NCBI GenBank assembly: GCA_016718205.1
Contig: JADKEB010000036.1
Span: forward strand, 52,148 to 116,147
DNA from: Saprospiraceae bacterium
GTDB taxonomy: Bacteria; Bacteroidota; Bacteroidia; Chitinophagales; Saprospiraceae
DNA length: 64,000 bases
Reading direction: 5' to 3'
Of the stretch, positions 2,249 to 19,054 are shown piece by piece. Numbering within the stretch: position 1 is the first letter of the stretch; every line of letters starts with the position of its first letter. The notes under the pieces are model-generated. The model was not told the DNA's origin. It made no database searches and was given only the letters and a program-made list of their open reading frames with translations. Position numbers and translations under genes: made by a program.

Positions 2249-3649
2249 ATGAGAAAATCATATTTTTTAATTTCAGTGACAATAGCAATATTGGGAATGA
2301 TGAGTTGCGATAAAAACCTGGATGTCATACCTACACAGTCAATAGAGCAGGATGCATCACTTCAAACACCTCGCGATATAGAAGCCTACCTGATTGGATG
2401 TTATGACGGTATTCAGGGAACAAATGCTAATGGCAATACTTTTGCAGGAGGATTTCAATATACCTCTGAACTACTTGGACACACGCAGCTGGGAGAAGTT
2501 CGTTTTGCGGGTACATTTGCAAATTTGCTTGAATTGATTACAAAAACCACAACTACTATTAACTCTACTGCAGAAGATCAGTGGGTGCGTGCTTATACAG
2601 TAATCAATCGTTGTAATACAGTCATTGCCAATATTGACAAAGCCGATCCGGCTAAAAAAACAAGGATTGAAGCTGAAGCTCTGTTTCTGAGGGGAGCCCT
2701 TTATTTTGAATTGACAAGGCTTTATGCCAAACAGTGGGGTGATGGTGATAATAATACAAACCCTGCAATTCCTTTAATCTTAAGCCCTACTAAGGTCGTT
2801 TCTGATGAATCTTCACAACCACGAGCTTCTGTTGCCGCAGTCTATACCCAGGCTATTGCTGACTTAACTAAAGCTGGTGCAGGTCTGCCGGCTTCGAACT
2901 CAGTATATGCTACTCGGGGTGCAGCTTATGGTATGTTGGCACGGCTACATTTGCAACAGGGTGATTATGCTAAAGCGAGAGCAGCGGCGGATTCGGTTAT
3001 TTCGGGCAACAGATACCGTTTAGTGACACCATTTTCAGCTGCTTTTAATACAAAATTGTATAATGGTGGAGCTAATCCTGCGGAGTACATATTTGCAGTA
3101 CAAACCAGTGACCAGGATGGTTTCAATGGTATGAACACTTTCTTTAGTACAACTTTAAGCGCAATTCCAGGTACTGCCGGACGAGGTGATATTCGTATAT
3201 TGGCAGCCCACAAAACACAATATGACGCTAATGATGATAGAGGAAAGTTCTTTATCAAACCAACTGCAACGTCATCAAATGAATTTACTAATAAATTTAT
3301 TGATAGATTTGGTAATGTGGTGGTATTACGTCTGGCTGAAATGTATTTAATACGCGCTGAGAGCAATTTCCGATTGAATGAAAGCAGAGGAGATACACCA
3401 CTTAATGATATCAACCGTTTGAGAACAAGAGCCAACGCTACACCATTGACATCGTCTCAATTAACTTTAGATGCGATTTTGAAAGAACGTAGATTAGAAC
3501 TTGCATTTGAAGGTCATAGATTGCATGATATTAAGCGCGCAAAAGGCACTGTTGGAACATTGCCATGGAATGACAATAAATTGGTATTACCTGTTCCGCA
3601 ACGTGAGATTGATGTCAATAAAAAACTGACGCAAAATCCTGGTTATTGA
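2249..3649 (+). CDS. SusD/RagB-family nutrient-binding outer-membrane lipoprotein
   Basis: Intact 466-aa ORF with a lipoprotein signal (ILGMMSC). Lies 36 nt downstream of the SusC-like gene. C-terminal region is typical of SusD (LRLAEMYLIRAE, ILKERRLELAFEGHRLHDIKR). Confidence 0.85.
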   Translation: MRKSYFLISVTIAILGMMSCDKNLDVIPTQSIEQDASLQTPRDIEAYLIGCYDGIQGTNANGNTFAGGFQYTSELLGHTQLGEVRFAGTFANLLELITKTTTTINSTAEDQWVRAYTVINRCNTVIANIDKADPAKKTRIEAEALFLRGALYFELTRLYAKQWGDGDNNTNPAIPLILSPTKVVSDESSQPRASVAAVYTQAIADLTKAGAGLPASNSVYATRGAAYGMLARLHLQQGDYAKARAAADSVISGNRYRLVTPFSAAFNTKLYNGGANPAEYIFAVQTSDQDGFNGMNTFFSTTLSAIPGTAGRGDIRILAAHKTQYDANDDRGKFFIKPTATSSNEFTNKFIDRFGNVVVLRLAEMYLIRAESNFRLNESRGDTPLNDINRLRTRANATPLTSSQLTLDAILKERRLELAFEGHRLHDIKRAKGTVGTLPWNDNKLVLPVPQREIDVNKKLTQNPGY

Positions 3650-4144: not shown

Positions 4145-4510
4145 GTAAGCATCCGACGAACCCCGTATTGCCAACCTTCGGCATAGGTGGTACCTTTGCA
4201 AAAAAAAACAAAGTCAGATGCGATACGACAAAGAACAAATAGATCAGTGGCTAACAGAATGGGAGCAATCGGGTCAGAGCATCAGTAAATATTGCGATGG
4301 GAAGCCCTTTGACAAGAGCACATTTTACAATTGGCGTAGCAAGGAAAGGAAACCTTCGGTCATAAATGAGCATAAGAGCAAGTTTGTATCTGTTCAAGTG
4401 TCACCATCCTTTATTCCTCAGATGAGTATTCATTACCCTAACGGAGTTAGAGTTGATATGCATATGATGCTGAGTATTGACTCCATCAGAGCATTGGCGG
4501 GATGTTAGCA
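4145..4510 (+). mobile_element. IS66-family insertion sequence, left-end remnant (terminal repeat plus orfA only)
   Basis: The sequence starts GTAAGCATCCGAC; IS66-family terminal repeats start with GTAA. It is followed by an orfA-like gene. No tnpB or tnpC follows. Confidence 0.55.
4218..4508 (+). CDS. IS66-family accessory protein (orfA/TnpA-like)
   Basis: 96 aa. N-terminal HTH-like segment WEQSGQSISKYCDGKPFDKSTFYNWRSK, and a C-terminal FVSVQV...MSIHYPNGVRVDM motif typical of Bacteroidota IS66 orfA. Confidence 0.6.
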   Translation: MRYDKEQIDQWLTEWEQSGQSISKYCDGKPFDKSTFYNWRSKERKPSVINEHKSKFVSVQVSPSFIPQMSIHYPNGVRVDMHMMLSIDSIRALAGC

Positions 4511-4514
4511 AGAG

Positions 4515-4860
4515 AGAATCGGGAAGATTTCTAGGCTTCGGATGTGAGATAAGTATGAAAGCTCGGACTCGCATCATTGAAGAATGGAAACAAATGAAAT
4601 TTCATCGAGCGAGCACACTTACCTTGCAAAACCTGGCGGAGATGCTCAACGTTAAATCACGAGGGATAATAAATTATTATGGCAAGATGAATATTTTGTC
4701 ATTAGAGAAATTATTCCGACATTTGGATTATCGTATAGCGAAATGGGTAAAGAATAAGTTTAAGAAATTGGGTAGCTACCTTAAGGCAGACGATTGGCTA
4801 CGAGACATCAAGTCAAAGTATCCTACTCTTTTTATGCATTGGGCGGTATCTAAAATCTAA
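4515..4860 (+). pseudogene. Group II intron reverse transcriptase/maturase, C-terminal fragment (end of RT domain 7 plus X domain)
   Basis: FLGF followed by LNVKSRGIINYYG (the maturase-domain RGWxNYY motif). The N-terminal RT domains are absent. It is followed directly by intron domain V-like RNA. Confidence 0.7.
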
Positions 4861-4990: not shown

Positions 4991-5056
4991 TAAAATAAAA
5001 AGGAAATTTTTAGTTTCCTAATAGGGAAATACTTATCTTTGCTAAAAAATAAGTTA

Positions 5057-5413
5057 ATGGGTAATTTTACCGTAGAATTGTTAGCTGAAGCCGTTGAGTT
5101 TATGGACAGTCTTGACGTCAAAACAAGGGATAAAATATACTATAATATAAGAAAAGCCCAATCAACATATGACACCGAAATTTTTAAAAAACTTAATAAT
5201 AATATTTGGGAGTTTAGAACATTATATAATGGAAAAGCATATAGGCTTTTTTCTTTTTGGGATACAATTAATAGTTCAAATACCTTAGTCATAGCAACAC
5301 ATGGAATATTGAAAAAAACACAGAAGACACCAAAGAAAGAAATTAATAAAGCCGAAGAAATTAGAATTGGATATTTAAATAACAAATATAAAAAACAGAA
5401 AAATGAAGGATAG
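5057..5413 (+). CDS. Type II toxin, RelE/ParE superfamily (HigB / phage Gp49-like)
   Basis: About 118 aa from the ATG at 5057 (the ORF track starts at a TTG at 5039). Family-like motifs FVEFMDSL, IWEFRTLYNGKAYRLFSFWD and VIATHGILKKTQKTPKKEI. Overlaps the downstream HTH gene by 11 nt. Confidence 0.75.
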   Translation: MGNFTVELLAEAVEFMDSLDVKTRDKIYYNIRKAQSTYDTEIFKKLNNNIWEFRTLYNGKAYRLFSFWDTINSSNTLVIATHGILKKTQKTPKKEINKAEEIRIGYLNNKYKKQKNEG

Positions 5414-5729
5414 ATTCAAAACAGTTTCTCTTGAAACAATGATTGATAAACATATAGGAAAACGTGGAACAATAAAACGTGAAGCCTTCGAAAATGAATT
5501 ACGAATAGATTTGCTTGGATATAAAATTAAGGAAGTTAGAAAACAACGAAACTTAACTCAAGAGCAATTAGGTAAATTAGTTGGTGTGCAAAAAGCACAA
5601 ATTTCAAAGATAGAGAATAGTGTAAAAAATGCAAGATTCGAAACAATTTTGAAAGTTTTCGAAGCATTGGGTGCTAAAGTGAACTTCAACGTTGAAATAA
5701 CAAACAACAACAAATTGGAATTAGTATAA
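5403..5729 (+). CDS. XRE-family HTH antitoxin (HigA-like)
   Basis: 108 aa with a Cro/C1-type HTH (RKQRNLTQEQLGKLVGVQKAQISKIEN). Toxin-upstream gene order is typical of HigBA. Confidence 0.8.
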   Translation: MKDRFKTVSLETMIDKHIGKRGTIKREAFENELRIDLLGYKIKEVRKQRNLTQEQLGKLVGVQKAQISKIENSVKNARFETILKVFEALGAKVNFNVEITNNNKLELV

Positions 5730-6768: not shown

Positions 6769-7295
6769 TGAAAGTTCATTAAGAAATTGGCATAATAATT
6801 GTTAAAATTACTAGTATTTTTCACCTTCAGTTTGCCTCGCATCTGGTTACTTACATTTAATATCCATTACACAACAAATCTTCATATTCTAAACCGTGTA
6901 GTGTCATCTCTAAAAAAATGAAATTTTACCACTTTTTAACTATATAATTTATCGTAATGTTTAATTATTTAAAAAGAAATCTCACTAATGACCACAATAA
7001 TTAAATACTTGTCGTACATTTGTGATACTTTTTGACTATGTATGGTGTTGTATGTTAATTAGTTGTTGAGATATTATTAAATTTGTAGATTTTTGACTAC
7101 ATCAAAATTTTAGAATGACTTATAGTAATATTATATATAAATAAAATTAAAATACATTTTTTTGTATATTTAATTGATTCAATTTGTACCGTATGAGCAG
7201 TACTCCCTATCAATTTGGATTAACTCGTAAAGACGGGAGCAAATATTGATACAATTAGCCATATTGAAAATTTAAAATGATAATTTATAAAATAA

Positions 7296-7970
7296 GTGAA
7301 AAGTAAATCATACTATTTTAGATGGGCTATATCTATAATGGCAGTGGTTCTATCTTATGTAGGTGGCATGGCTCAGGCAAAAATTGGTGATAATCCTACA
7401 GTGATTGACCCCAACTCTATTTTGGAACTCGAAAGTCCCAATCAGGGCTTGCTTATGCCGCGAATTTCGCTCACTGCTACCACCAATGCTGCACCACTTA
7501 CCACACATATCGCAGGCATGACGGTATATAATACTGCTACACAAAATGACGTACTTCCCGGATACTACTATAATGATGGCACCAAATGGGTCAAAGTACT
7601 CACCAGTGGATTGGGACCACTCAATACTCCAACGGTAATAGGAACCAGTCCGACCAATACACTCTCTATCACAGGCCTGGGATCAGGCAATCCATTGACA
7701 GATGAAATACTCACCATTGATCCGGTGACTGGGCGCATCAGCAAGTCATCGACATCCGCACTGATCGTAGAGGAGCAAATATTACATGTGGCTGCAGGAG
7801 GTCAGACCCAATTTCCTACTCCGATGCCCATCACCGATATCGACAAAATCAATGTATATAGAAACGGGGCCAGAATAGGTGCTACCATGGTCAATACGAC
7901 TACAATAGCCCTGGAAGCAGGAGTAATATGTGTACCTGATGATGAAATAAGAATCGTTCAGATCAAGTAA
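7296..7970 (+). CDS. Secreted fibre-module protein (paralogue 1 of 3)
   Basis: 224 aa from a GTG start, with a signal peptide ending AQA. Shares the ITGLGSGNPLTDEILTIDPVTGRISK module and a C-terminal VYRNGA...IK domain with the next ORF. Confidence 0.65.
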   Translation: MKSKSYYFRWAISIMAVVLSYVGGMAQAKIGDNPTVIDPNSILELESPNQGLLMPRISLTATTNAAPLTTHIAGMTVYNTATQNDVLPGYYYNDGTKWVKVLTSGLGPLNTPTVIGTSPTNTLSITGLGSGNPLTDEILTIDPVTGRISKSSTSALIVEEQILHVAAGGQTQFPTPMPITDIDKINVYRNGARIGATMVNTTTIALEAGVICVPDDEIRIVQIK

Positions 7971-8026
7971 ATATTTTAATAACAAATTTTTATAATTTTT
8001 TTTTTAAATCTTTAAATCAATTCAAA

Positions 8027-9154
8027 ATGAGAAAGTATTTTCTTCCACTAGTCGCCATACTATTTATGGCAGCAAGTGCCAATGCACAGCTTGACTCTAC
8101 CAAAGTCATAGACAACAAGGGTACTATCAAGTACGTACTCAAGGCTTCAAACTCTAATACCATTATCACAAAAATGGACAGCCTTGTGCTTTATGTCACT
8201 CCAAAACAATTGGGTGATAGTCTCAATAATTATGTGGCATATTCAGATACTATGGCAATGCTTTTAAATTATCTCAACAATGCTACCAATGGTCTCACAA
8301 AAGCAGGACAAACAGTAAAATTGGGTGGGGCGCTGACAGAGGCTACAACTATTTCTGCTAATGCCTTTGATCTGATTTTAGCTTCAACAGCTGGATCTGT
8401 TAAGGTAACAGGACTTGGGTCAGGAGCAGCAGCGACAGATAGTTTGGTGGTGGTGGACCCGAGTTCGGGTGCCTTAAAAAGAATCTCTGCATCTACACTA
8501 TTCAATGCGCTAACATTTAGCAACGGTCTTACAAAGACTGGTAATTTGGTGGAGTTGGGAGGTGCACTTACAAAACCCACAACGATCGGGACAGATGCTA
8601 CCAATGTATTGAAGGTCACCGGATTGCAGTCAGGAAGTGCAGTAGACAGTCTCGTAGTAGTAGGTGCTGACGGTACTTTCAAAAAGATCACTCAGGAGAG
8701 CTTACTCAAGAGTGGAGAGCAAGTATTTACAGCTACTGCAGGAACACTTACTTATACGGTCACCGGTACTGCAACTCCATTGCCAGTATATAGCAAAGTT
8801 TGGGTATACAGAAATGGTGCTAAACTCCTCGCAAATGATGACTATACTGTAGCTGGTAGTGTTGTTACTTTGGTAGAAGATGCCGAATGGAGTCTTGCCA
8901 CAGGAGATAAAATCGAAGTTCACTGGATCAAAAAGGAATGGAGGGGCACAGGACTTCCCCCTTGCCCAAATGGAGTCTTGCCACAGGAGATAAAATCGAA
9001 GTTCACTGGATCAAATAGACATGTAGCAGTACATGACTTTCCATTTTGGACTAAATATATGATAGGATTTCCATCATCAGTGATGCACTGGTTTTGGAAG
9101 TCCTTTCAAAATATGTCAAACAAAATTGTTTTTTGTTTCTATATACAATTTTAA
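8027..9154 (+). CDS. Secreted fibre-module protein (paralogue 2). The 3' end is altered by a duplication; the ancestral stop is probably the TAG at 9016..9018 read in another frame
   Basis: Signal peptide ending ANA. Two TGLGSG/TGLQSG..DSLVVV modules. The C-terminal domain [10 protein letters not shown]...[10 protein letters not shown] is homologous to the end of ORF 7296. After WIK the ORF runs on through unrelated low-quality sequence. Confidence 0.65.
8886..9015 (+). repeat. Two identical 47-bp copies (8886..8932 and 8969..9015) separated by a 36-bp GC-rich spacer
   Basis: Direct comparison of the two copies. The offset is 83 bp, so copy 2 is out of frame with copy 1. Confidence 0.9.
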
Positions 9155-9155
9155 G

Positions 9156-12100
9156 ATGCCAAAGTTATCAAAAATAATACATCTTGCCATATTTTTATTT
9201 TGTGGCTTGGGTTATATCCACGCACAAGTAAGAGTCATCGACCATAAGGGTACGTTCAAGCAGATTGATAGTAGCAAATGGACGCTCAGCGGCACGCATA
9301 TTTACAATAAGAATAGCGGCAATGTCGGTATTGGACTGATCAATCCTATGGCAAAACTGCATACTTCAGGTACACTTAGATTTGAAGGTTTACCATTAGG
9401 ATTAGTTTCTGACAGTTTGCTTACAATATTTGGAGGAAATGTTGGGAAGATTTCATCTGATGGATTCTGGAGGCTTGGGGGCAACAACCCTTCATCAGGG
9501 GCAGCATTGGGCAGCATTGATGCTGACTTACCTATCATATCATGGGGGAAAATGGGGATACTACTCAAAGACGATGCCAATGTCGTGTTTGGGATAAAAC
9601 CTGATCATAACCTAAGTGTGGATCCAAATAACCACAGTAACCTTTCTTTGACGTCCAATTTAAATGGAAGTATTCAAACACTTGATGACAATAACTCTGA
9701 AAATATTTTTGTAGGAGGTATTGAAAAAACTGCAAAAAATAGACTTAATTTAAGCTTTGGTGAAAAGATAAGAGATTTTCAAAATAATAAGCTAAATTTT
9801 ACCATCACAAGAGAACTGGAATTATTTCATGATAATACAAATGTCATCTTAAATCAGGGGGCTGCAGCTAATTTTACCCAAAATGAGTATATTATAGCCA
9901 ATGGAAATAAATTTTCGGATTGGACGAAAAATGACAGGATTTTAGCCAATGGAGAAGGACTTCAACTTGAAGATGTGCATCAGGCTGAAGTTTTTGGTTC
10001 CGGAAAAGTTACAGGTCAAAGTCAAGCCTTACTCCTTGTAGAAGCTGACAAGATAAATACAAAACTGGCGCATGGAGCCGGTTTATCCCAAAACTCTTAT
10101 ATAAATTATTTAGGTGGTAATTTAGGTATAGGCAACGATAACCCAATGGCAAAATTACATGCTTCAGGTACTCTTAGATTCGAAGGCCTCGGCACCAATA
10201 CTACCAACATCAATTTCCTGACCACTGATGTGAATGGTGATGTCACGACCCGGACACTTTCCAGCCTACTGAGCAATAATGCCATCACATCTCTCAATGG
10301 ATTGACCCAATCTATACAAACTTTTGCCACAGGTACTGCTGGTTCAGATTTCAATATAAACTCTTCAGGTTCGGTTCATACATTCAATATTCCTGATGCT
10401 TCAGCTTCAAACAGAGGATTATTGACAGCCGCAAACTGGACGACATTCAACAATAAAGAAAATGCCATAGCCGCAGGAACCGCTCCACAATATTGGCGCG
10501 GTGACAAAACCTGGCAAACACTAAATACAAGCGTCGTACCGGAAGTAACTAACTTATATTTTACGGACACCAGAGCAAGAAATGCGGTATCTTTGACAAC
10601 AACGGGAAATAGTGGTGCTGCTACTTACACTGCAGGTACAGGGGTATTTAACATTCCAACTTACACTTTGGCAGGATTAGGTGGGATTAGCCTGACTGGA
10701 TTATCTGCCACAGCCCCTTTAACTTATAATAACACAACAGGCGCTTTCAGTATCAATCAAGCCAACGGATCTACTAATGGATTTTTATCATCCTCCGATT
10801 GGAACATTTTTAATAACAAACAATCAGCATTAACTTTTTCAACAGGTTTAACCAATACAGCTAATACCATAACACTAAATCCAGCTACCGTTTCTACTTT
10901 AGGAGGTATAAAAGTAGGTTCAGGTTTAAATGTTTTGGGCGATGGAACATTAAGCGTTACATCTGTAGCCACAACAGTTTCTAATACTTCGTCGGCTAAT
11001 AATTTATCTACAACGGTAAACGGAGTAGCGGGTACGGCCGTTCCAATGATCAACACAAATGTTTTATCAAGTGCCTCCGGAAACATTACAAGTACGATAA
11101 ATGGTGTATCTTCGGGTGCAATTGCCTTAACTGGAATTACAACTTCTAATTTGTCTGCATCTGCAGGAATTGTCAATACTCAATTGGCTAATAGTAGCGT
11201 AACCATCAATGGAACTTCCATTGCTTTAGGCGGAAGTGGTACCATAACGGCTGCACCATCAGGAACAGCAGGTGGTGATTTAACAGGAACCTACCCAAAT
11301 CCAACTATTGGCACTGGAAAAGTAACTACTACCAATATATTAGACGGAACCATCGCAACAGCCGATATAGCTGACAACGCTGTGACTTCTGCCAAGATTG
11401 TAGATGGAACGATAGTCACATCCGATATAGCCAACAACGCCGTAACGGTTGCAAAATTACCAATAGGTGCCACCGCCACTACTTTTCTTCGCGGCGATGG
11501 TACTTGGGTGATACCAACCAATACCACTTATACAGGAAGCACATCTATCACTTTAAATGGCACATCTTTTGAAAGAGCGGCTCTTACAGGAGATGTAACT
11601 GCTGCTGCCAATTCCAATGCAACCACCATTGCTAATGATGCCGTAACTTCTGCTAAAATTGCCGATGGAACGATTGTAACAGCCGATATAGCTGACAACG
11701 CTGTGACTTCTGCCAAGATTGTAGATGGAACAGTTGCAAATGTTGATTTGGCAACAATGGCAGCAAATACAGTTAAAACAAATGCAACAGCCGGAACTGC
11801 TTCTCCGACAGATTTAGCAATTACAACAAATAGCTTATTCGGTCGTGGAGCAGGTAATATCACTCCAATAACATTGGGTACAGGACTTTCCATAACAGGG
11901 ACAACTTTAAACTCAACAGGTGGGACAGTTACCAATGTCACAGGAACTTTACCCATCTCTGTAGCAACTGGCTCCACAACTCCTGTGGTTTCTATTGCCA
12001 CAGCAAATACTTCCACAACAGGAGCAATTAGCAGTACCGATTGGAATACTTTTAACAATAAAATAGGAATTATCAATGGTACTGCACCCATTACAGCTAC

Positions 12101-12788
12101 AACTGCAAGTGGAACAACTAGCTTAGGGATAACAAGAAATAATATCACAGCAGGTACCAGCTCCAATGTGGCTACAAACCCTCTTGTTCTCGATGCCGGA
12201 GCTACCAATGCAGTTGTCGGTGGGGCCAATGCCACACTTACTGTAAACAATACTGCACCTCTCTGGAATGCTAATCAATTGCAGGGAAGAAATGTGGCCA
12301 ATACAGCACCAAGTAATAGCCAAGTGCTAACTTATAATACTTCTTCTAGTCAATGGGAACCACAAGGTAAGACATTGAAAGTTGTAGATTTATATTCAAC
12401 CACAGCTTCACAAACTATTTCTAACGTGGTAAGTACGCTAAATATTAATACTGTAAGGATTAATTTAGGATCTATATTTACTCTCGCAACAAATCAAATA
12501 ACAGTTAGCGAAACTGGTACATATAGAATTACGTATAATATCGGAGTAAATATTGCATCAACCAATGAAGTATCAAGTAGATTTTGGTTAGAAAACAATA
12601 ATACCGAGATAGTTAATTCCAATATTATAATCCATGCTTATGGTGGATCTTCTTCTTGTAGTAGCCGAAGCATAATTTTACAATTATCTGCAAGTGATGT
12701 TATCCGCATAAGGATGCAAAGAGTTAATACTATTGACATGAATACAGTTCCAACATGTACAGGGTTAAATATTGAAAAGCTAAATTAG
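9156..12788 (+). CDS. Large secreted tail-fibre-like repeat protein with a C1q/TNF-like C-terminal head (paralogue 3)
   Basis: About 1,210 aa from the ATG at 9156, with a signal peptide ([15 protein letters not shown]). Contains a duplicated GN(V/L)GIG..NPMAKLH(T/A)SGTLRFEGL module, three G(L/F)LS..DW..FNNK motifs, [16 protein letters not shown] repeat arrays, and a C-terminal jelly-roll-like pattern ([13 protein letters not shown] ... [13 protein letters not shown]). Confidence 0.75.
11357..11731 (+). repeat. Perfect 54-bp direct repeat (11357..11410 and 11678..11731) inside the fibre gene
   Basis: The string aacagccgatatagctgacaacgctgtgacttctgccaagattgtagatggaac occurs twice. The offset is 321 bp (107 codons, in frame). 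Confidence 0.9.
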
Positions 12789-12882: not shown

Positions 12883-15800
12883 ATGCAGAAAAAATGTAAA
12901 AATATATTGTTGCAAAAGTGGGCTTTGATTGTCTTTATCAGCCTGGTTGCAACATGTACATTTACTTTATCTGCCCAAAGCAAAACCAGGGGCAACACCT
13001 TTGTGCACGGCGCAAGAGAGATGTCAGTGTTTAAGGAACATCATTTTATCAATGGAGGCAATGGGGTTCTTCCTGGGATCGTAGGTACTAAAAGAAATGG
13101 GCCTACCTATTTTTCGTTTGCTGGTACATCGAGTGTGGCTGCAGTCTCAGATGCTGCACATGTGGACGGTTATGTAAAAAACTATGTCCATCAGGTTTTC
13201 ACATTTCCTATCGGAGACAATGGTGTTTATGGCCCAGTAACCACGATTGCTCCTTCACCTATCACAGTAGCTTCACCTATCAGCGCTGCATACTTTCGTA
13301 CCAATCCTGATGTGGCCGTTACGACTTCGCTTCTCGGAAGTAATGAACCTGCACTGCCTGTGGGTGCTCCATTTCCACGTACCATGCGTGAAGTGGGTGT
13401 ATCAGCTGTCAGTCCCATCGAATACTGGGATGTAGATGGCACCGCACCCGTCCGTCTCAGGCTACACTGGAGCAATGCATCTCAGATCAATACACTCACC
13501 AATGGTATGCTCATGGGGCTAAGGATAGTAGGGTGGAACGGCACGCAATGGGTTGACATACCGGGTACGCTCGATGTCGGCGCAGACCTCAATGCAGGCA
13601 CCATCACGACCAATGCTGCTATTGTCCCCAATACTTATACGGCATATACGTTTGGTGTGTCTTGCGATCTGATAGATGTAGTTTTTTCAGGAGTTCCTGC
13701 GGGATTGTATCTATGTGAAGGGCAGACTGGGACGCTTGATGTCAATGTCATGTTGGGTGGAGCGGCTTATATACCAGATTTTATTTTGGAGAGATATGAA
13801 GGTGCATCTTGGCTACCATGGAGTGGTCCCAATACTGATGGTATTTTCACTTTCACAGGATTGCCACCCAATGTTCCCAATGTCAGATATCGTATCAGGA
13901 TCAATTTCGGCACCTGTACACGACTCAGTGATGAATTTATATTGCATTCATACAAGTCCGCCACTTTAGCCTGTCAGGGAAATCTCAATGCAAGTGTCAA
14001 TCAGGATTGTGAGATTTTTTTGCATGCCGGCATTTTTCTGACTCAGGCTGTCAATCCACCTGAGTTTTATGATCTGGTGGTGACCGATAGCAAGGGAAAA
14101 GTAGTGCCCAATCCTGTGAAAAATCCAAATAACGGAGAGATATTTATGGTATCTATCAAAGAGAGATGTACTGGAAACTCTTGCTGGAGTACGATCAAGC
14201 TCGAAGATAAACTGGCACCGGAGATTACTGATTGCCATTCGAGCCAATCATTTGCGTGTCATGAGTTTGAGACCATAAGATCAGAAACCGCTGCGCTCCA
14301 TTTTGGAGGATCTCCATCTTTTGCCCTGAGCAGAAAACCAGACGTCGCAGACAATTGCAGTAATATGGATGTTTCTTTTGTTGACATCATTTCCGCAGGT
14401 ACCTGTGGTGTAAAACAAATAAAGAGAGCTTGGCTATTTACCGATAAACCAGGCAATAAAGCCAGTTGTGAGCAAATATTAAATTTCACACCATTGTCAT
14501 TGACCGATATCAGGGATCCGGTAGCACAAGTAGTCCTGGATTGTAAAAGTGATTTCACACCACAGCATATCCAACAAGCATTTGACAATAAAGCGACTTT
14601 GGATGATTCCAAATCTCGTTACGTCATCGAAAACAATGAAGGAAGTGTCTATGGTGGATTTACTTACAAGGCAAGAGGAACGGACAGAGGCTTTCACAAT
14701 CAAAGGATAGAAAACAATGTCTGTAATATCTATACCTCATATACTGACGAAGAGATCCGAATCGAAAGCTTTTCAGGATGCATCAAAGAGAGAAAAATCC
14801 TTAGAAAATGGATAGTATTGGATGATTGTACCAATGCTTTCAGAAATTTGACCCAAATCATTATCCTTAGGGATACAACAGGGCCACAATTTACCATCGC
14901 TCCGATCACGCAGACGCTGGGTACACACGATTGTTCCGCAAGTGTAGTAGTACCTTTGCCTACGTTGCTGCAGGATGATTGTACAGAAATATCAAAACTG
15001 AAATGGTCCGTGATTACTCCTATAGGCACAACAGTTAGCGGTACGATGCCCTCTTATATTATCCATGGACTGGTCAAAGGTATTCATAATATCACCTACA
15101 TAGTAGAAGACTGTGCCGGCAACCAGGCCCAAAAAACGACTACCATTCATATACAGGATTTGATGGCACCTACTGTGATATTGAAGCAAAACATCGTTGT
15201 CAGTCTTTCAGGATCATCACAGGGAGGTGGATATGCCAAGTTGTTCCACACATCAATAAACAATGGCTCGTATGATCCATGCAGTCGTGTCAGAGTAGAG
15301 ATCAGACGCAAGATGGGCAGCAGCTGTGAAAATGATGGCATCAATCATCACAACAACAATCTTACTTATAGTAACATTGCAGCAACAGGCACCGTCAACT
15401 CCTGGGTACACACAGACAATAATCCGGCAGATACGGATGGCGGCGAATATGTAACATTTTGCTGTAGCGACATCATGCCAGGCATGACATATGGCCTTCA
15501 CGATGTGGAAGTCAGAGTATGGGATGATGCCAATGGAAACGGTATCATAGGTGACACACTCATCATCAATGGTATGCGGGACAATTTTAATAATGGATGG
15601 GCTAAGGTCAGAGTCGAGCACAAGATACCTCCGGTGATGACCTGTCCTAAAGATATCGTCCTCCAATGTGATGATACATTCGGCCTCAATACTCAAAATC
15701 CAATTCGGGTAGGTAGCACCATGTCTACCGGAATTCCTGCAGTGAGAGCACTGTGTACGGATACCTTTGCTATGACATATCTTGACAGATGGACAAGCAA

Positions 15801-18216
15801 TGGTATCTGCAATATAGGAACACTTGAGCGTACATTCAGGATCATGGATTCACCAATTTCATGCGTCCAGAAGATAACGGTCCATGCGCACCCTACGCCA
15901 TTTGCAGTGACTTTTGCAGAAGCAGGTATCTATCAGTGGGATCAATGTAACTTTACGATAGATCATGCCAAAAATGCCACCCATAGTCCCAAAGTGAGCC
16001 ATAGCCCGTGTGATGAGATAGGTCAGCATATAAAAATCGACACCTTCTATTTTTCCGGAAGTGCATGCAAAAAATGGGTAGTACAGTATTCTTATCACAA
16101 TCATTGCACAGGACAGACCATAGATGCACCTGTGATCAGCTACTTCTACAATGACACTATCACACCACAATGGAGTGATTTGTCACATGAAGTAAATGCT
16201 ATAGGCAGTACATGTACATCTGGTGTAGTACTCAAGGCAAAGCTGTCAGACAAAACAACCTGTGGTGACCAGCAGAGACTATCCATTGACTTTTACCTGG
16301 ATATCAATGGGGACAAAACGGTAGATTATATAGTCGCATCTGGATTGAAAGGAATCGTACCTTCCGGTCTATGGACAAAAATGAATCTTGGGCAGAGTGT
16401 GTACCATCAGGTGAAATCGCTTATGGGCAACATCATCTTGGCTGATGAAATCCATGTGAGCTATCTGCCATCAGTCACCGGCAGTGATGCTGTCATACAG
16501 ACATTACCTGTGACTATCCGGCAAGGTGATCACCTGCATAAACTCTCATGGAAAGTTAAGGACGAATGTGGTAATATCTCGGAGCAGACGTATGAATTTA
16601 ATTTGAGGGATCAAAAACCACCTTCTCCCATTTGTATAGAGCTGAGCACAAGTATCACTTCCAACTCCAATCCTTCAGTTGCATTGTGGGCCAAAGATTT
16701 TATCATCAAAGCACAAGACAATTGTACACCGGATGCTGAATTGTACTATACATTTGACTCCGTAGGGCCCGTGTCCAATATGATTCATTTGGAACATTAT
16801 TTCAAGCCAGTTGGAGGAGTTGCTACAGTTTCCAATTTAACTGAGTACGAAGCAGGCCTTTCTTACATCTGGGTACCATCGACCAAAACAGCGGGCAAAG
16901 TGTGGAATACGCATGGTATATTTGAAGTACCTGTCTATGTGTGGGATGCTGCCGGCAATCGCGACTTTTGCAAGACCAAGGTCACTGTCATCAATACCGA
17001 CATGCGCACTACCATATCGGGAAAGGTGGAGTCTATCAGCGGTGTTGCCAAAAAAGGAGCAATGGTACACCTTGTCTCCAGTCTGGAAGATCAATCAAAC
17101 AGTACCCTATCGGATGATCGGGGCGAATACCTTTTTGAAGTACCACTGAATGCTGAATATACAGTATCTGCTGAGTATGTCGGGGACTATCTTGAGGGCG
17201 TTTCTACACTCGATTTAGTGCTGATCCAAAGACATATTCTAGATCTGCAGCGCCATGACAATGTATATAAGATGATCGCATCCGATGCCAATAATGACGG
17301 CAAGATTACGGCTTCAGATCTTGTGGAGTTGAGAAAATTGATCCTTGGTGTGACCAATGCATTTAATAATAAGAGCTGGAGACTACCCAAAAAGCTTCAG
17401 AATCTTGACTTAACGTATCCATTCCCATATACGGAGGGCTATTCTGAAAACCCACTGATGCTGCCTATGCAAAAAGTGGACTTTGTAGCTGTCAAAATAG
17501 GAGATATCAACGGAAATGCTTCAGGCGCACAACAAAACATCGTAGAACCAAGATCCAATAAAAAACTTAATTTTGAAGTGGCCAATGTAGTTTTGGAACC
17601 ACAAGAGCGCATATATGTACCCGTGTATGCATCCAACTTCAAAGATATCTTTGGATTCCAGACTACATTGAAGCTCAAAGATGCGGTATTTGTAGATTTG
17701 ATACCGGAAGGACTGGATATCGATGCTACCAGTATCGGAAAGTTGAACGATGACACCTATACGCTTAGTTATGCTGCGAAGCAACCACTTACTATTGATA
17801 GAGATAAAAAGCTTTTCACTCTGGTGATTGACCCTAAAAACTCCGTGTTACTGGAAGATATCTTGCAGCTAAGCTCTGAGATCACCAGATCTGAGTCCTA
17901 TACAAGCGACCTGAAAGTAAGTGGCCTTAGCATCACATTTAGAAATGATGTCAATAATATGGCACTGCTCCAAAACGAGCCCAACCCATACATATTTACG
18001 ACCAATATCCGATGGTTGGGTACAAAATCAGAAAATGTAAAACTTGTGATCACAGACGACCAAGGCAAGATCATGTTGGTGAGAAATGTAAAATCTGTCA
18101 AAGGTCTGAATACCATTACTCTGGAAGCCAAAGATATACCGTATGCAGGTATCTACTTCTATACATTGAGCGGCAATACAATTAATGCGACTAAGAAGAT
18201 GGTGAAAATTGAGTGA
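12883..18216 (+). CDS. Giant T9SS-secreted adhesin (1,777 aa): HYR-like Cys modules, CarboxypepD_reg-like module, dockerin-like module, cohesin-like module and a type A T9SS C-terminal sorting domain
   Basis: Signal peptide present. Repeated D.C...C / PP..TCP modules (APEITDCHSS, GPQFTIAP..HDCSASVVVP, PPVMTCPKDIVLQCDD). TISGKVES...DDRGEYLFEV matches CarboxypepD_reg. DANNDGKITASDLVELRKLILGV is dockerin/EF-hand-like. KLNFEVANVV...IFGFQTTLKL is cohesin-like. The C-terminal QNEPNPY...GIYFYTL...KKMVKIE is a T9SS CTD. Confidence 0.85.
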   Translation: MQKKCKNILLQKWALIVFISLVATCTFTLSAQSKTRGNTFVHGAREMSVFKEHHFINGGNGVLPGIVGTKRNGPTYFSFAGTSSVAAVSDAAHVDGYVKNYVHQVFTFPIGDNGVYGPVTTIAPSPITVASPISAAYFRTNPDVAVTTSLLGSNEPALPVGAPFPRTMREVGVSAVSPIEYWDVDGTAPVRLRLHWSNASQINTLTNGMLMGLRIVGWNGTQWVDIPGTLDVGADLNAGTITTNAAIVPNTYTAYTFGVSCDLIDVVFSGVPAGLYLCEGQTGTLDVNVMLGGAAYIPDFILERYEGASWLPWSGPNTDGIFTFTGLPPNVPNVRYRIRINFGTCTRLSDEFILHSYKSATLACQGNLNASVNQDCEIFLHAGIFLTQAVNPPEFYDLVVTDSKGKVVPNPVKNPNNGEIFMVSIKERCTGNSCWSTIKLEDKLAPEITDCHSSQSFACHEFETIRSETAALHFGGSPSFALSRKPDVADNCSNMDVSFVDIISAGTCGVKQIKRAWLFTDKPGNKASCEQILNFTPLSLTDIRDPVAQVVLDCKSDFTPQHIQQAFDNKATLDDSKSRYVIENNEGSVYGGFTYKARGTDRGFHNQRIENNVCNIYTSYTDEEIRIESFSGCIKERKILRKWIVLDDCTNAFRNLTQIIILRDTTGPQFTIAPITQTLGTHDCSASVVVPLPTLLQDDCTEISKLKWSVITPIGTTVSGTMPSYIIHGLVKGIHNITYIVEDCAGNQAQKTTTIHIQDLMAPTVILKQNIVVSLSGSSQGGGYAKLFHTSINNGSYDPCSRVRVEIRRKMGSSCENDGINHHNNNLTYSNIAATGTVNSWVHTDNNPADTDGGEYVTFCCSDIMPGMTYGLHDVEVRVWDDANGNGIIGDTLIINGMRDNFNNGWAKVRVEHKIPPVMTCPKDIVLQCDDTFGLNTQNPIRVGSTMSTGIPAVRALCTDTFAMTYLDRWTSNGICNIGTLERTFRIMDSPISCVQKITVHAHPTPFAVTFAEAGIYQWDQCNFTIDHAKNATHSPKVSHSPCDEIGQHIKIDTFYFSGSACKKWVVQYSYHNHCTGQTIDAPVISYFYNDTITPQWSDLSHEVNAIGSTCTSGVVLKAKLSDKTTCGDQQRLSIDFYLDINGDKTVDYIVASGLKGIVPSGLWTKMNLGQSVYHQVKSLMGNIILADEIHVSYLPSVTGSDAVIQTLPVTIRQGDHLHKLSWKVKDECGNISEQTYEFNLRDQKPPSPICIELSTSITSNSNPSVALWAKDFIIKAQDNCTPDAELYYTFDSVGPVSNMIHLEHYFKPVGGVATVSNLTEYEAGLSYIWVPSTKTAGKVWNTHGIFEVPVYVWDAAGNRDFCKTKVTVINTDMRTTISGKVESISGVAKKGAMVHLVSSLEDQSNSTLSDDRGEYLFEVPLNAEYTVSAEYVGDYLEGVSTLDLVLIQRHILDLQRHDNVYKMIASDANNDGKITASDLVELRKLILGVTNAFNNKSWRLPKKLQNLDLTYPFPYTEGYSENPLMLPMQKVDFVAVKIGDINGNASGAQQNIVEPRSNKKLNFEVANVVLEPQERIYVPVYASNFKDIFGFQTTLKLKDAVFVDLIPEGLDIDATSIGKLNDDTYTLSYAAKQPLTIDRDKKLFTLVIDPKNSVLLEDILQLSSEITRSESYTSDLKVSGLSITFRNDVNNMALLQNEPNPYIFTTNIRWLGTKSENVKLVITDDQGKIMLVRNVKSVKGLNTITLEAKDIPYAGIYFYTLSGNTINATKKMVKIE

Positions 18217-18649: not shown

Positions 18650-19054
18650 GTGCAAAAATGGGATACAGCACAGTTTGCCTCTCAGCCGCTACCCAATGCA
18701 CCTCTTTGCCAGCCATTGGTTTACAATTTTAGTATGCTTAGTACCCTTGCTGCCGATTTAAGAAACCACCGCTTGCAGGTAACTATACCTACAGGTATGA
18801 CCTTAACAACTGTGCGGATAGAATATCCCAGTAATAGCGGTTCTTACCAAACGGTAACACCTGATGCAGCAGCAGCTACATTGAGTGTATATGACGTAAC
18901 CGGAAAAGTTGTATCAGTAAGAAACATCAATGCAAATAAAGGCTTGAATAGTGAAGTATTCACAAGAGCGTAGTTGGGAGCAAGCGGTGTAATGTACTAT
19001 ACACTTAAGAGCGGTGAGTTCACAGCAACTAAGAAAATGATCATCATCGAGTAG
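18650..19054 (+). pseudogene. Remnant of a T9SS-secreted surface protein (internal fragment fused to a type A CTD, with an in-frame TAG at 18971)
   Basis: Reads ...ATLSVYDVTGKVVSVRNINANKGLNSEVFTRA*LGASGVMYYTLKSGEFTATKKMIIIE. The ending parallels the CTD of the 12883 gene (NATKKMVKIE). Confidence 0.65.

Follow-up and report, generated by a model that had tools for sequence, protein, structure and literature searches.

Phage-fiber-like secreted proteins of Bacteroidota genetically tied to a type IX secretion substrate

A 64,000-nucleotide stretch of DNA (the window) from a Saprospiraceae metagenome-assembled genome contains three consecutive forward-strand genes for secreted proteins resembling bacteriophage tail fibers, directly upstream of the gene for a type IX secretion system (T9SS) substrate. 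The genes, designated here P1 (open reading frame (ORF) 7296; positions 7296-7970, 224 amino acids (aa)), P2 (ORF 8027; 8027-9154, 375 aa as it stands) and P3 (ORF 9156; 9156-12788, 1210 aa), are separated by 56 bp and 1 bp, respectively, and 94 bp lie between P3 and the T9SS substrate gene P4 (12883-18216, same strand, 1777 aa). A reading of the window made from its sequence alone (hereafter, the sequence-only reading) had proposed a surface fiber in which the small paralogs serve as adaptors or bases for the long one. Our analysis firmly indicates that P1, P2 and P3 form a cellular, Sec-exported, phage-fiber-derived set that is genetically tied to a T9SS substrate. We further consider it moderately probable that these three proteins, together with a T9SS-exported protein carrying the N-terminal domain of P4 (hereafter P4N), constitute a cassette that builds an adhesive cell-surface fiber.

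Gene order and genomic context

We assembled a set of 82 loci, of which 79 came from a scan of one genome per species and 2 from ortholog look-ups, the window being the remaining one. In all 82, which span several orders of Bacteroidota, P1 is directly followed by P2 on the same strand, and this pair is nearly always followed by a P3-type fiber gene. Homologs of P1 and P2 number in the hundreds and were found in Bacteroidota only, the 82 loci coming from Saprospiraceae, Chitinophagaceae, Flavobacteriaceae, Chryseobacterium, Paludibacter/Microbacter and Nubsella. Homologs of P4N are encoded in 42-46 of the 82 loci. The commonest layouts are P1-P2-P3-P4N (19 loci), P1-P2-P3 (19 loci) and P4N-P1-P2-P3. 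A separate observation concerns one Ferruginibacter and one Saprospiraceae genome, in which the full cassette is present twice in tandem (L012, 9146-18912; L017, 9160-18599), with copies that differ in the length of P3.

All-against-all clustering of the 2562 ORFs located within 10 kb of the 82 loci revealed only two conserved families, namely, the fiber superfamily (82 loci) and P4N (46 loci); the remaining clusters were antisense shadow ORFs or lineage-specific housekeeping genes. The flanks consist of housekeeping genes that differ between lineages, and no family of capsid, portal, terminase, tail, baseplate or integrase proteins recurs within the 10-kb flanks of the 82 loci, which extends to the entire set the observation, made previously for the window, that phage structural and integrase genes are missing nearby. 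In searches against 50,697 phage genomes, P1 had no match, P2 had one weak match, confined to its fiber module, and P3 matched 24 records through its repeat region alone. The refuting case named in the sequence-only reading, homologs found almost only inside intact prophages, was not borne out, homologs being located outside phage gene sets in 82 of 82 loci. ORF 6244, which the sequence-only reading had considered as a further member of the system, has no homolog in any of the 81 related loci and was therefore ruled out as a cassette member.

The coordinates and the conserved cleavage contexts bear out the prediction that all three forward-strand ORFs start with signal peptides (aa 1-26 in P1, 1-20 in P2 and 1-23 in P3). 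At each N-terminus, as read from the sequence, a basic n-region precedes a hydrophobic core and a cleavage context of A-x-A followed by Q. In P2, the residues A20 and Q21 are invariant among 43 homologs, and in P1, Q27 is almost invariant among 47 homologs; a glutamine at position +1 is a typical feature of Bacteroidota signal peptidase I substrates. A scan with Pfam and NCBIfam models detected no T9SS C-terminal domain (CTD) in P1, P2 or P3 at E<=1 (TIGR04183, PF18962, TIGR04131, PF13585). By inspection, no lipobox was seen either: the signal peptides of P1 and P2 contain no cysteine, and the FLFC-G sequence of P3, with Phe at position -1, does not fit a lipobox. Thus, the predicted lack of a T9SS CTD and of a lipobox in the three proteins agrees with both the scans and the inspection.

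Domain architecture of the fiber proteins and P4

The signal peptide of P1 is followed by an N-terminal domain (aa 27-101, 7374-7598) that belongs to PF26696 (PTL_trimer), a fiber module (aa 102-158, 7599-7769) and a C-terminal beta-sandwich that resembles phage docking domains (aa 159-224, 7770-7967). The assignment to PF26696 comes from the precomputed annotation of a protein 100% identical to P1 (P0121), and nearly all of the 120 listed P1 homologs (all but a few) are annotated in the same way. The domain maps to aa 27-101 given that the N-terminal fragments P0214 and P0225 retain PF26696 and P0152, which is devoid of the N-domain, lacks it. This family is a domain catalogue entry for the N-domain of P1 and does not extend to P2, P3, P4N or the cassette; a literature search found no paper on PF26696 and no meaning of “PTL”. 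In some long fibers (P0040, P0098, P0115 and P0120), PTL_trimer is located at the extreme C-terminus, so that this domain can cap either end of a fiber.

In P2, the signal peptide is followed by a short conserved motif (N-motif, aa 27-36), two fiber modules (about aa 101-160 and 161-228) and a C-terminal docking-like domain (aa 229-300). We built alignments of the families from the 82 loci and compared the resulting profiles with each other using hhalign. The P1 module matched the first P2 module at 99.3% (E = 5e-20) and the second one at 98.6% (E = 6e-16), and the two P2 modules matched each other at 99.4%, so the module recognized by eye once in P1 and twice in P2 is significant in profile-profile comparison throughout (98.6-99.4%). 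The C-terminal domains of P1 and P2 are homologous as well (hhalign 97.3%, E = 2.5e-11), and the two proteins are already linked by BLASTP (2e-11). The “GNVGIG..NPMAKLH” module is indeed present twice in P3, but its proposed kinship to the P1/P2 module is no better than marginal (hhalign 58.6%, E = 9.5e-5), and BLASTP was not significant.

The product of the window P2 gene, identical to the NCBI protein IPO37_24070, differs from its relatives at the C-terminus. An 83-bp tandem duplication (8883-8965 and 8966-9048, forward strand) spans the native stop of P2, which closes a frame of ~300 aa (8027-8926). The two copies are 87% identical, with about 10 differing positions that cluster after the stop; the native TAG reads AAG in copy 1, and the TAG after “...IEVHWIK” is retained only in copy 2, out of frame. 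The duplication shifts the frame, appending 75 unrelated residues (8927-9151) and extending the ORF to 9154. Accordingly, the inferred homology of the P1 and P2 C-terminal domains stands, whereas the “IK-stop” ending ascribed to P2 does not. The other P2 homologs are all 290-316 aa long, with 375 aa found in this genome only (P0241), and among 85 P2-class proteins, none but the window P2 has 75 residues beyond the C-domain. Either a genuine mutation or an artifact of assembly or polishing could account for the duplication. Mutagenesis by a diversity-generating retroelement was ruled out as the source of the differences between the copies because the substitutions are not adenine-specific.

The C-terminal domains of P1 and P2 provide a structural link to phages. 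AlphaFold2 monomer models reached a mean predicted local distance difference test (pLDDT) value of 82 for P1 (97 for the C-domain) and 68 for P2 (~90 for the C-domain). In Foldseek searches, these domains shared their fold with the N-terminal particle-docking domains of podophage fibers and tailspikes, including the T7 gp17 N-terminus, LME-1, HRP29, PhiM1, cyanophage A4 and the CBA120 TSP4 N-terminus, with PDB entries such as 9efk_AE, 8es4_F, 8vbx_S, 7ey9, 7boz_a and 7rfv among the matches. The probability was about 1.0, with a root-mean-square deviation of 1.6-2.6 A over 62-75 residues and E-values from 1e-3 to 1e-2 against the PDB, down to 3e-7 against BFVD, where many tail fibers and depolymerases were among the matches. 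By contrast, searching the PDB with the sequences of P1 and P2 yielded nothing useful, the sole match being BT_4661 (E = 0.044). In nearly all P1 and P2 proteins, the docking-like domain ends 0-2 residues before the stop. The beta-sandwich thus corresponds to the docking N-domains of podophage fibers and branched tailspikes (T7 gp17, CBA120 TSP4, G7C gp63.1/gp66), and the repeats of P3 match cyanopodovirus fibers. The arrangement described here differs from these systems in that the domain is C-terminal and signal peptides are present, with no virion or tail, in a cellular, phylum-wide set.

P2 and P3 share the N-motif, a V-I-D-x-K-G-T sequence at the mature N-terminus (hhalign of the N-termini, 94.6%), which the sequence-only reading had not noted. 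The motif was detected in all 85 P2 proteins and in 56 of 68 P3 proteins, the others showing near-variants, but in none of 72 P1 and 48 P4N proteins and in only 16 of 2265 background ORFs. By the strict pattern, 51 of 65 loci have the N-motif in the gene that directly follows P2, and near-variants are present in 12 of the other 14. The distance from the predicted cleavage site is 4-6 residues in Saprospiraceae and Chitinophagaceae, and 25-45 residues in Flavobacteriaceae. Most often, a locus contains two docking domains together with two N-motif proteins (45 of 68); a strict one-to-one correspondence between the two counts was considered and dropped, this being the commonest pattern and not a universal one. 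Small P3 proteins are missed by the family profiles, which lowers counts based on these.

P3 is the long fiber of the set. Its signal peptide is followed by the N-motif “VIDHKGTFK” (aa 27-35), the first copy of the P3 module (aa 55-90), a lineage-specific insert (aa 80-309, 9393-10082), the second module copy (aa 321-357), a region of phage-fiber repeats with a second insert (about aa 556-809, the insert at about 10821-11582) and a C-terminal head (aa ~1075-1210, 12378-12785). The motifs reported for P3 are all present in the number claimed, with the 21-residue module core occurring twice (aa 55-79 and 321-345), “G..S..DW..FNNK” three times (aa 421, 542 and 956) and the 16-residue repeat arrays at aa 730-768 and 827-865. 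The likeness of these arrays to phage tail-fiber repeats is corroborated by tblastn of aa 651-897, which matched tail fibers of T7-like cyanophages and Gordonia minor tail proteins, and by the match of the repeat region to PHROG tail fiber 28766. Compared with a 722-aa ortholog, the window P3 carries the two lineage-specific insertions. The first of these has no homolog in the 81 related loci and has a lower G+C content; a copy of the module lies on either side of it, which accounts for the double occurrence.

The C-terminus of P3 is a C1q/TNF-like domain. The match to PF00386 (C1q) scored 22.4 bits (E = 1.6e-4), just under the cut-off of 23.7, and a homolog (P0029) exceeded it with 32.8 bits. 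A profile of the head built from 12 family members and searched against the PDB matched over the whole domain (positions 25-145 of 148), with adiponectin at 1.4e-9, C1q-related factor/C1QL3 at 3e-8 to 7e-8 and C1q-like chains, including cerebellin, over a range of 1e-9 to 3e-7, followed by BclA at 2.6e-3 and BxpB/ExsF at 0.016-0.04. Both the length and the tip of P3 vary greatly across loci, from 226 to more than 1800 aa. The minimal version, in L046 (226 aa in total), combines the N-motif with a C-terminal domain judged by eye to resemble C1q/TNF, and many database relatives of the P3 stalk carry an S74 chaperone domain.

P4 encompasses the P4N domain (N-terminal ~245 aa; aa ~15-262, 12925-13668, forward strand), a middle part of HYR/Ig-like, CarboxypepD_reg and dockerin-like domains, and a type A CTD (aa 1700-1775, 17980-18207; TIGR04183, E = 6.2e-9), which confirms that a giant T9SS adhesin is encoded directly downstream of P3. 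The suggested tie of the fiber genes to a T9SS protein holds; however, the relevant partner is the P4N domain rather than the giant adhesin as a whole. Stand-alone P4N proteins of 380-440 aa are encoded elsewhere (pairwise E = 6e-13 and 1e-13 against the P4 N-terminus), with a type B CTD in Flavobacteriaceae (PF13585, 1.7e-20) and a type A CTD in Chitinophagaceae (TIGR04183, 1.7e-6). Given that the type of the CTD switches and its presence is constant, T9SS export of P4N appears to matter. The P4N domain had no sequence match in the PDB or Pfam, and it heads 758 representative clusters of proteins that range from 200 to 6910 aa.

In Maribacter-type loci, long PTL_trimer-headed fibers are encoded directly upstream of a P4N gene of their own. 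This second type of pair consists of a 960-1350-aa PTL_trimer protein, in which the domain is followed by ~40 copies of a “GADGNDG..SAYE.AV..GFTG..S.WL.SLQG” repeat, and a P4N gene for a type B T9SS protein; it was found in Maribacter (L043, 14714-19515) and also in L032, L034, L041, L044 and L080.

The proposed fiber and competing explanations

The analysis shows which domains the proteins contain, their homology and similarity of fold, and a gene order that is conserved in a non-phage setting; trimer state, surface location and binding partners are inferred, as follows. P1, P2 and P3 would be homotrimeric subunits derived from phage tail fibers, for which hints are provided by the C1q heads, a collagen Gly-X-Y stretch in a Maribacter P1 homolog and the Pfam name PTL_trimer itself. 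The P4N protein would be the base delivered by T9SS, with the PTL_trimer domain of P1 binding to it, and the two docking C-domains at the ends of P1 and P2 would receive the two N-motif ends of P2 and P3, a pairing suggested by the commonest count of two and two per locus. The result would be a segmented or branched fiber in which P4N, P1, P2 and P3 follow one another in gene order, as in the long tail fiber of T4, with P1 and P2 as short connector segments and P3 as the long distal segment whose C1q/TNF-like head binds a ligand. Short adaptor proteins that carry other fibers are an idea familiar from podophage fiber and tailspike complexes, and the original suggestion that the small paralogs are adaptors fits, because both P1 and P2 end in a particle-docking type of fold. 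T9SS cargo is held by the C-terminus, so in the window P4N would be located at the outermost end of a stalk of 1777 aa.

Several observations weigh against this proposal. The P1 and P2 models are monomers whose N-terminal halves are of low confidence, and the Foldseek E-values against the PDB are modest (about 1e-3), as the domain is small. The docking-like domain is C-terminal in P1 and P2 and N-terminal in phage fibers, and its role may differ accordingly. A P4N gene is present within 10 kb in only roughly half of the loci, so P4N may be non-obligatory or encoded elsewhere, and in the window, the 75-aa read-through tail may impair P2. Furthermore, no established export route would take P1, P2 and P3 through the outer membrane, and T9SS is not known to export partners that lack a CTD. 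Because T9SS moves folded proteins (PMC9251779), co-export of P1-P3 with P4N is conceivable; a literature search found no report of piggy-back export by this system. The most specific version of the proposal, in which CTD-less trimers dock on P4N, travel with it through T9SS and join end-to-end into one segmented fiber, is tentative, and we view it as rather doubtful.

Among the alternatives, we regard as possible, but unlikely, that P1, P2 and P3 are three independent adhesins, kept together by tandem duplication and shared regulation next to a functionally unrelated T9SS gene. The great variability of P3 in length and tip would suit such adhesins, as would the lack of a nearby P4N gene in about half of the loci and the occurrence of the P4N domain at the head of many other proteins of widely different size; fibers that function as separate adhesins have a precedent in Bdellovibrio (PMC10769870). 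What this explanation does not accommodate readily is the strict order of P1, P2 and an N-motif fiber across several Bacteroidota orders. Moreover, P2 is unusually conserved for an adhesin, with 54-60% identity between Saprospiraceae and Chitinophagaceae and a uniform length, and P1 and P2 have a docking-type end in place of any tip-like variable domain. Finally, P4N retains a T9SS CTD despite the change of its type and recurs beside PTL_trimer fibers.

It is less plausible, and in our estimate improbable, that the conserved ends serve in export or sorting, such that the P1/P2 C-domain represents an unrecognized class of T9SS signal, or the N-motif directs another outer-membrane route, and P4N serves as a shuttle or chaperone. 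The C-domain is a small beta-sandwich that, like T9SS CTDs, ends next to the stop, the N-motif is close to the cleavage site in Saprospiraceae and Chitinophagaceae, and the cassette is linked to a T9SS substrate. Against this, a C-domain of this kind is missing from P3, the largest subunit, whose C-terminal heads are variable; the best structural matches of the C-domain are phage fiber docking domains and not CTDs; TIGR04183, TIGR04131 and PF18962 do not match it; and in Flavobacteriaceae, the N-motif is far removed from the cleavage site. Last, a prophage or tailocin remnant, in which tail-fiber genes would have been left after decay of the particle, was rejected as highly improbable after the phage-genome searches and the ORF clustering: the homology of the P3 repeats to phage tail fibers, the podophage-like fold of the P1/P2 C-domains and mobile-element debris 2.5-3 kb upstream (transposase helix-turn-helix (HTH), group II intron maturase and Gp49-like toxin) are outweighed by the non-recurrence of phage structural and integrase families within 10 kb of the 82 loci, the lineage-specific housekeeping flanks, the nearly empty searches with P1 and P2, the phylum-wide conservation of the cassette and the conserved Sec signal peptides of all three proteins, which, to our knowledge, virion fibers lack.

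The proposed surface fiber can be compared with two known systems. The mosaic adhesive trimer (MAT) fibers of Bdellovibrio bacteriovorus (Caulton et al. 2024, PMC10769870) are described as surface-located, single-gene products with an unidentified anchor and consist of a signal peptide, a conserved ~130-aa beta-rich N-domain, a trimeric fiber and a variable or S74 tip. Like the proteins described here, they are chromosomally encoded and phage-tail-fiber-like, with a Sec signal peptide and no recognizable anchor in either case. The architecture is also similar, in that a conserved region adjoins the signal peptide and leads into a long stalk of repeats with exchangeable tips at the C-terminus, and the S74 domain found on relatives of the P3 stalk is the one that defines a MAT subfamily. 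The differences include the phylum, the fixed set of three genes, the two short connectors without tips and the T9SS-exported partner, and a sequence search detected no match between the window proteins and the solved MAT tip structures.

The second system is BclA of the Bacillus exosporium hair, which is anchored on BxpB/ExsFA. A short N-terminal segment of BclA attaches it to this separate base protein, and an analogous attachment would be made by the fibers described here. The filament with a C1q/TNF-like C-terminal head, which is trimeric and probably so in our case, is a further likeness, as are the collagen Gly-X-Y stretches in the Maribacter homologs. Unlike these fibers, BclA is a spore-surface protein of Gram-positive bacteria with no link to T9SS, and the stalks in the window are built of phage-fiber repeats and contain no collagen. 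Neither the MAT nor the BclA system includes the fixed multi-gene set, the two connectors or the T9SS partner, and a literature search found no paper describing the cassette.

The surface biology of Bacteroidota is dominated by T9SS cargo and lipoproteins. Phylum-wide fiber proteins that carry neither signal and yet are tied to a T9SS substrate suggest an undescribed route to surface appendages. The present analysis gives names and boundaries to four uncharacterized families (P1/PTL_trimer, P2, the N-motif fibers and P4N) and offers a testable model for the domestication of phage-fiber parts in cell adhesion, with swappable heads, including C1q-like ones. Direct testing is possible because the carriers include culturable marine and fish-associated Tenacibaculum, Maribacter, Zobellia, Cellulophaga and Chryseobacterium. 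If piggy-back docking on a T9SS protein turned out to be true, it would also hint at the kind of anchor that is missing for the MAT fibers of Bdellovibrio.

Leader sequence and neighboring elements

The AT-rich leader noted upstream of P1 is confirmed (6769-7295, forward strand, 527 bp, 23.7% GC). Its promoter-proximal part (6925-7295, ~370 bp) is ~85% identical to the corresponding regions of two orthologous Saprospiraceae loci (L001, 7825-8224, and L002, 7765-8164), that is, conserved as strongly as coding sequence. Within the alignment are a TACATTTG box (7015) and the GTG with which P1 starts, and the invariant GTACATTTGTGATA block corresponds to a TAnnTTTG-type Bacteroidota -7 box at 7015. 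This pattern suggests that the conserved leader comprises a promoter and a 5' untranslated region of ~280 nt. No Rfam family matched the leader, with no riboswitch or known RNA detected, and a scan for sigma-70 promoters and terminators, which is ill-suited to Bacteroidota, showed no difference from shuffled sequences.

Just past P4, a 107-aa ORF (18650-18973) has the C-terminal sequence “...LSVYDVTGKVVSVRNINANKGLNSEVF”, which resembles part of a type A sorting domain of T9SS cargo; the ORF may be the remnant of a second cargo gene. Upstream of the leader, a transposase HTH fragment (96 aa) overlaps a group II intron fragment with the maturase domain only (GIIM, 3e-8) at 4218-4860. The latter lacks a reverse-transcriptase (RT) domain; in L001 and L002, an intact RT-maturase of 411 aa occupies the equivalent position, so the intron of the window has decayed. 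Between this mobile-element debris and the cassette, a gene for a Gp49/HigB-like toxin (PF05973, 4e-17) and an HTH_3 antitoxin-like gene share 11 bp (5039-5729), and the two likely form a toxin-antitoxin pair. Farther upstream, a TonB-dependent receptor appears to be split between two ORFs (459-1280 and 1295-2212) that are followed by a SusD-family gene (2249-3649); the split receptor may be a frameshifted SusC.

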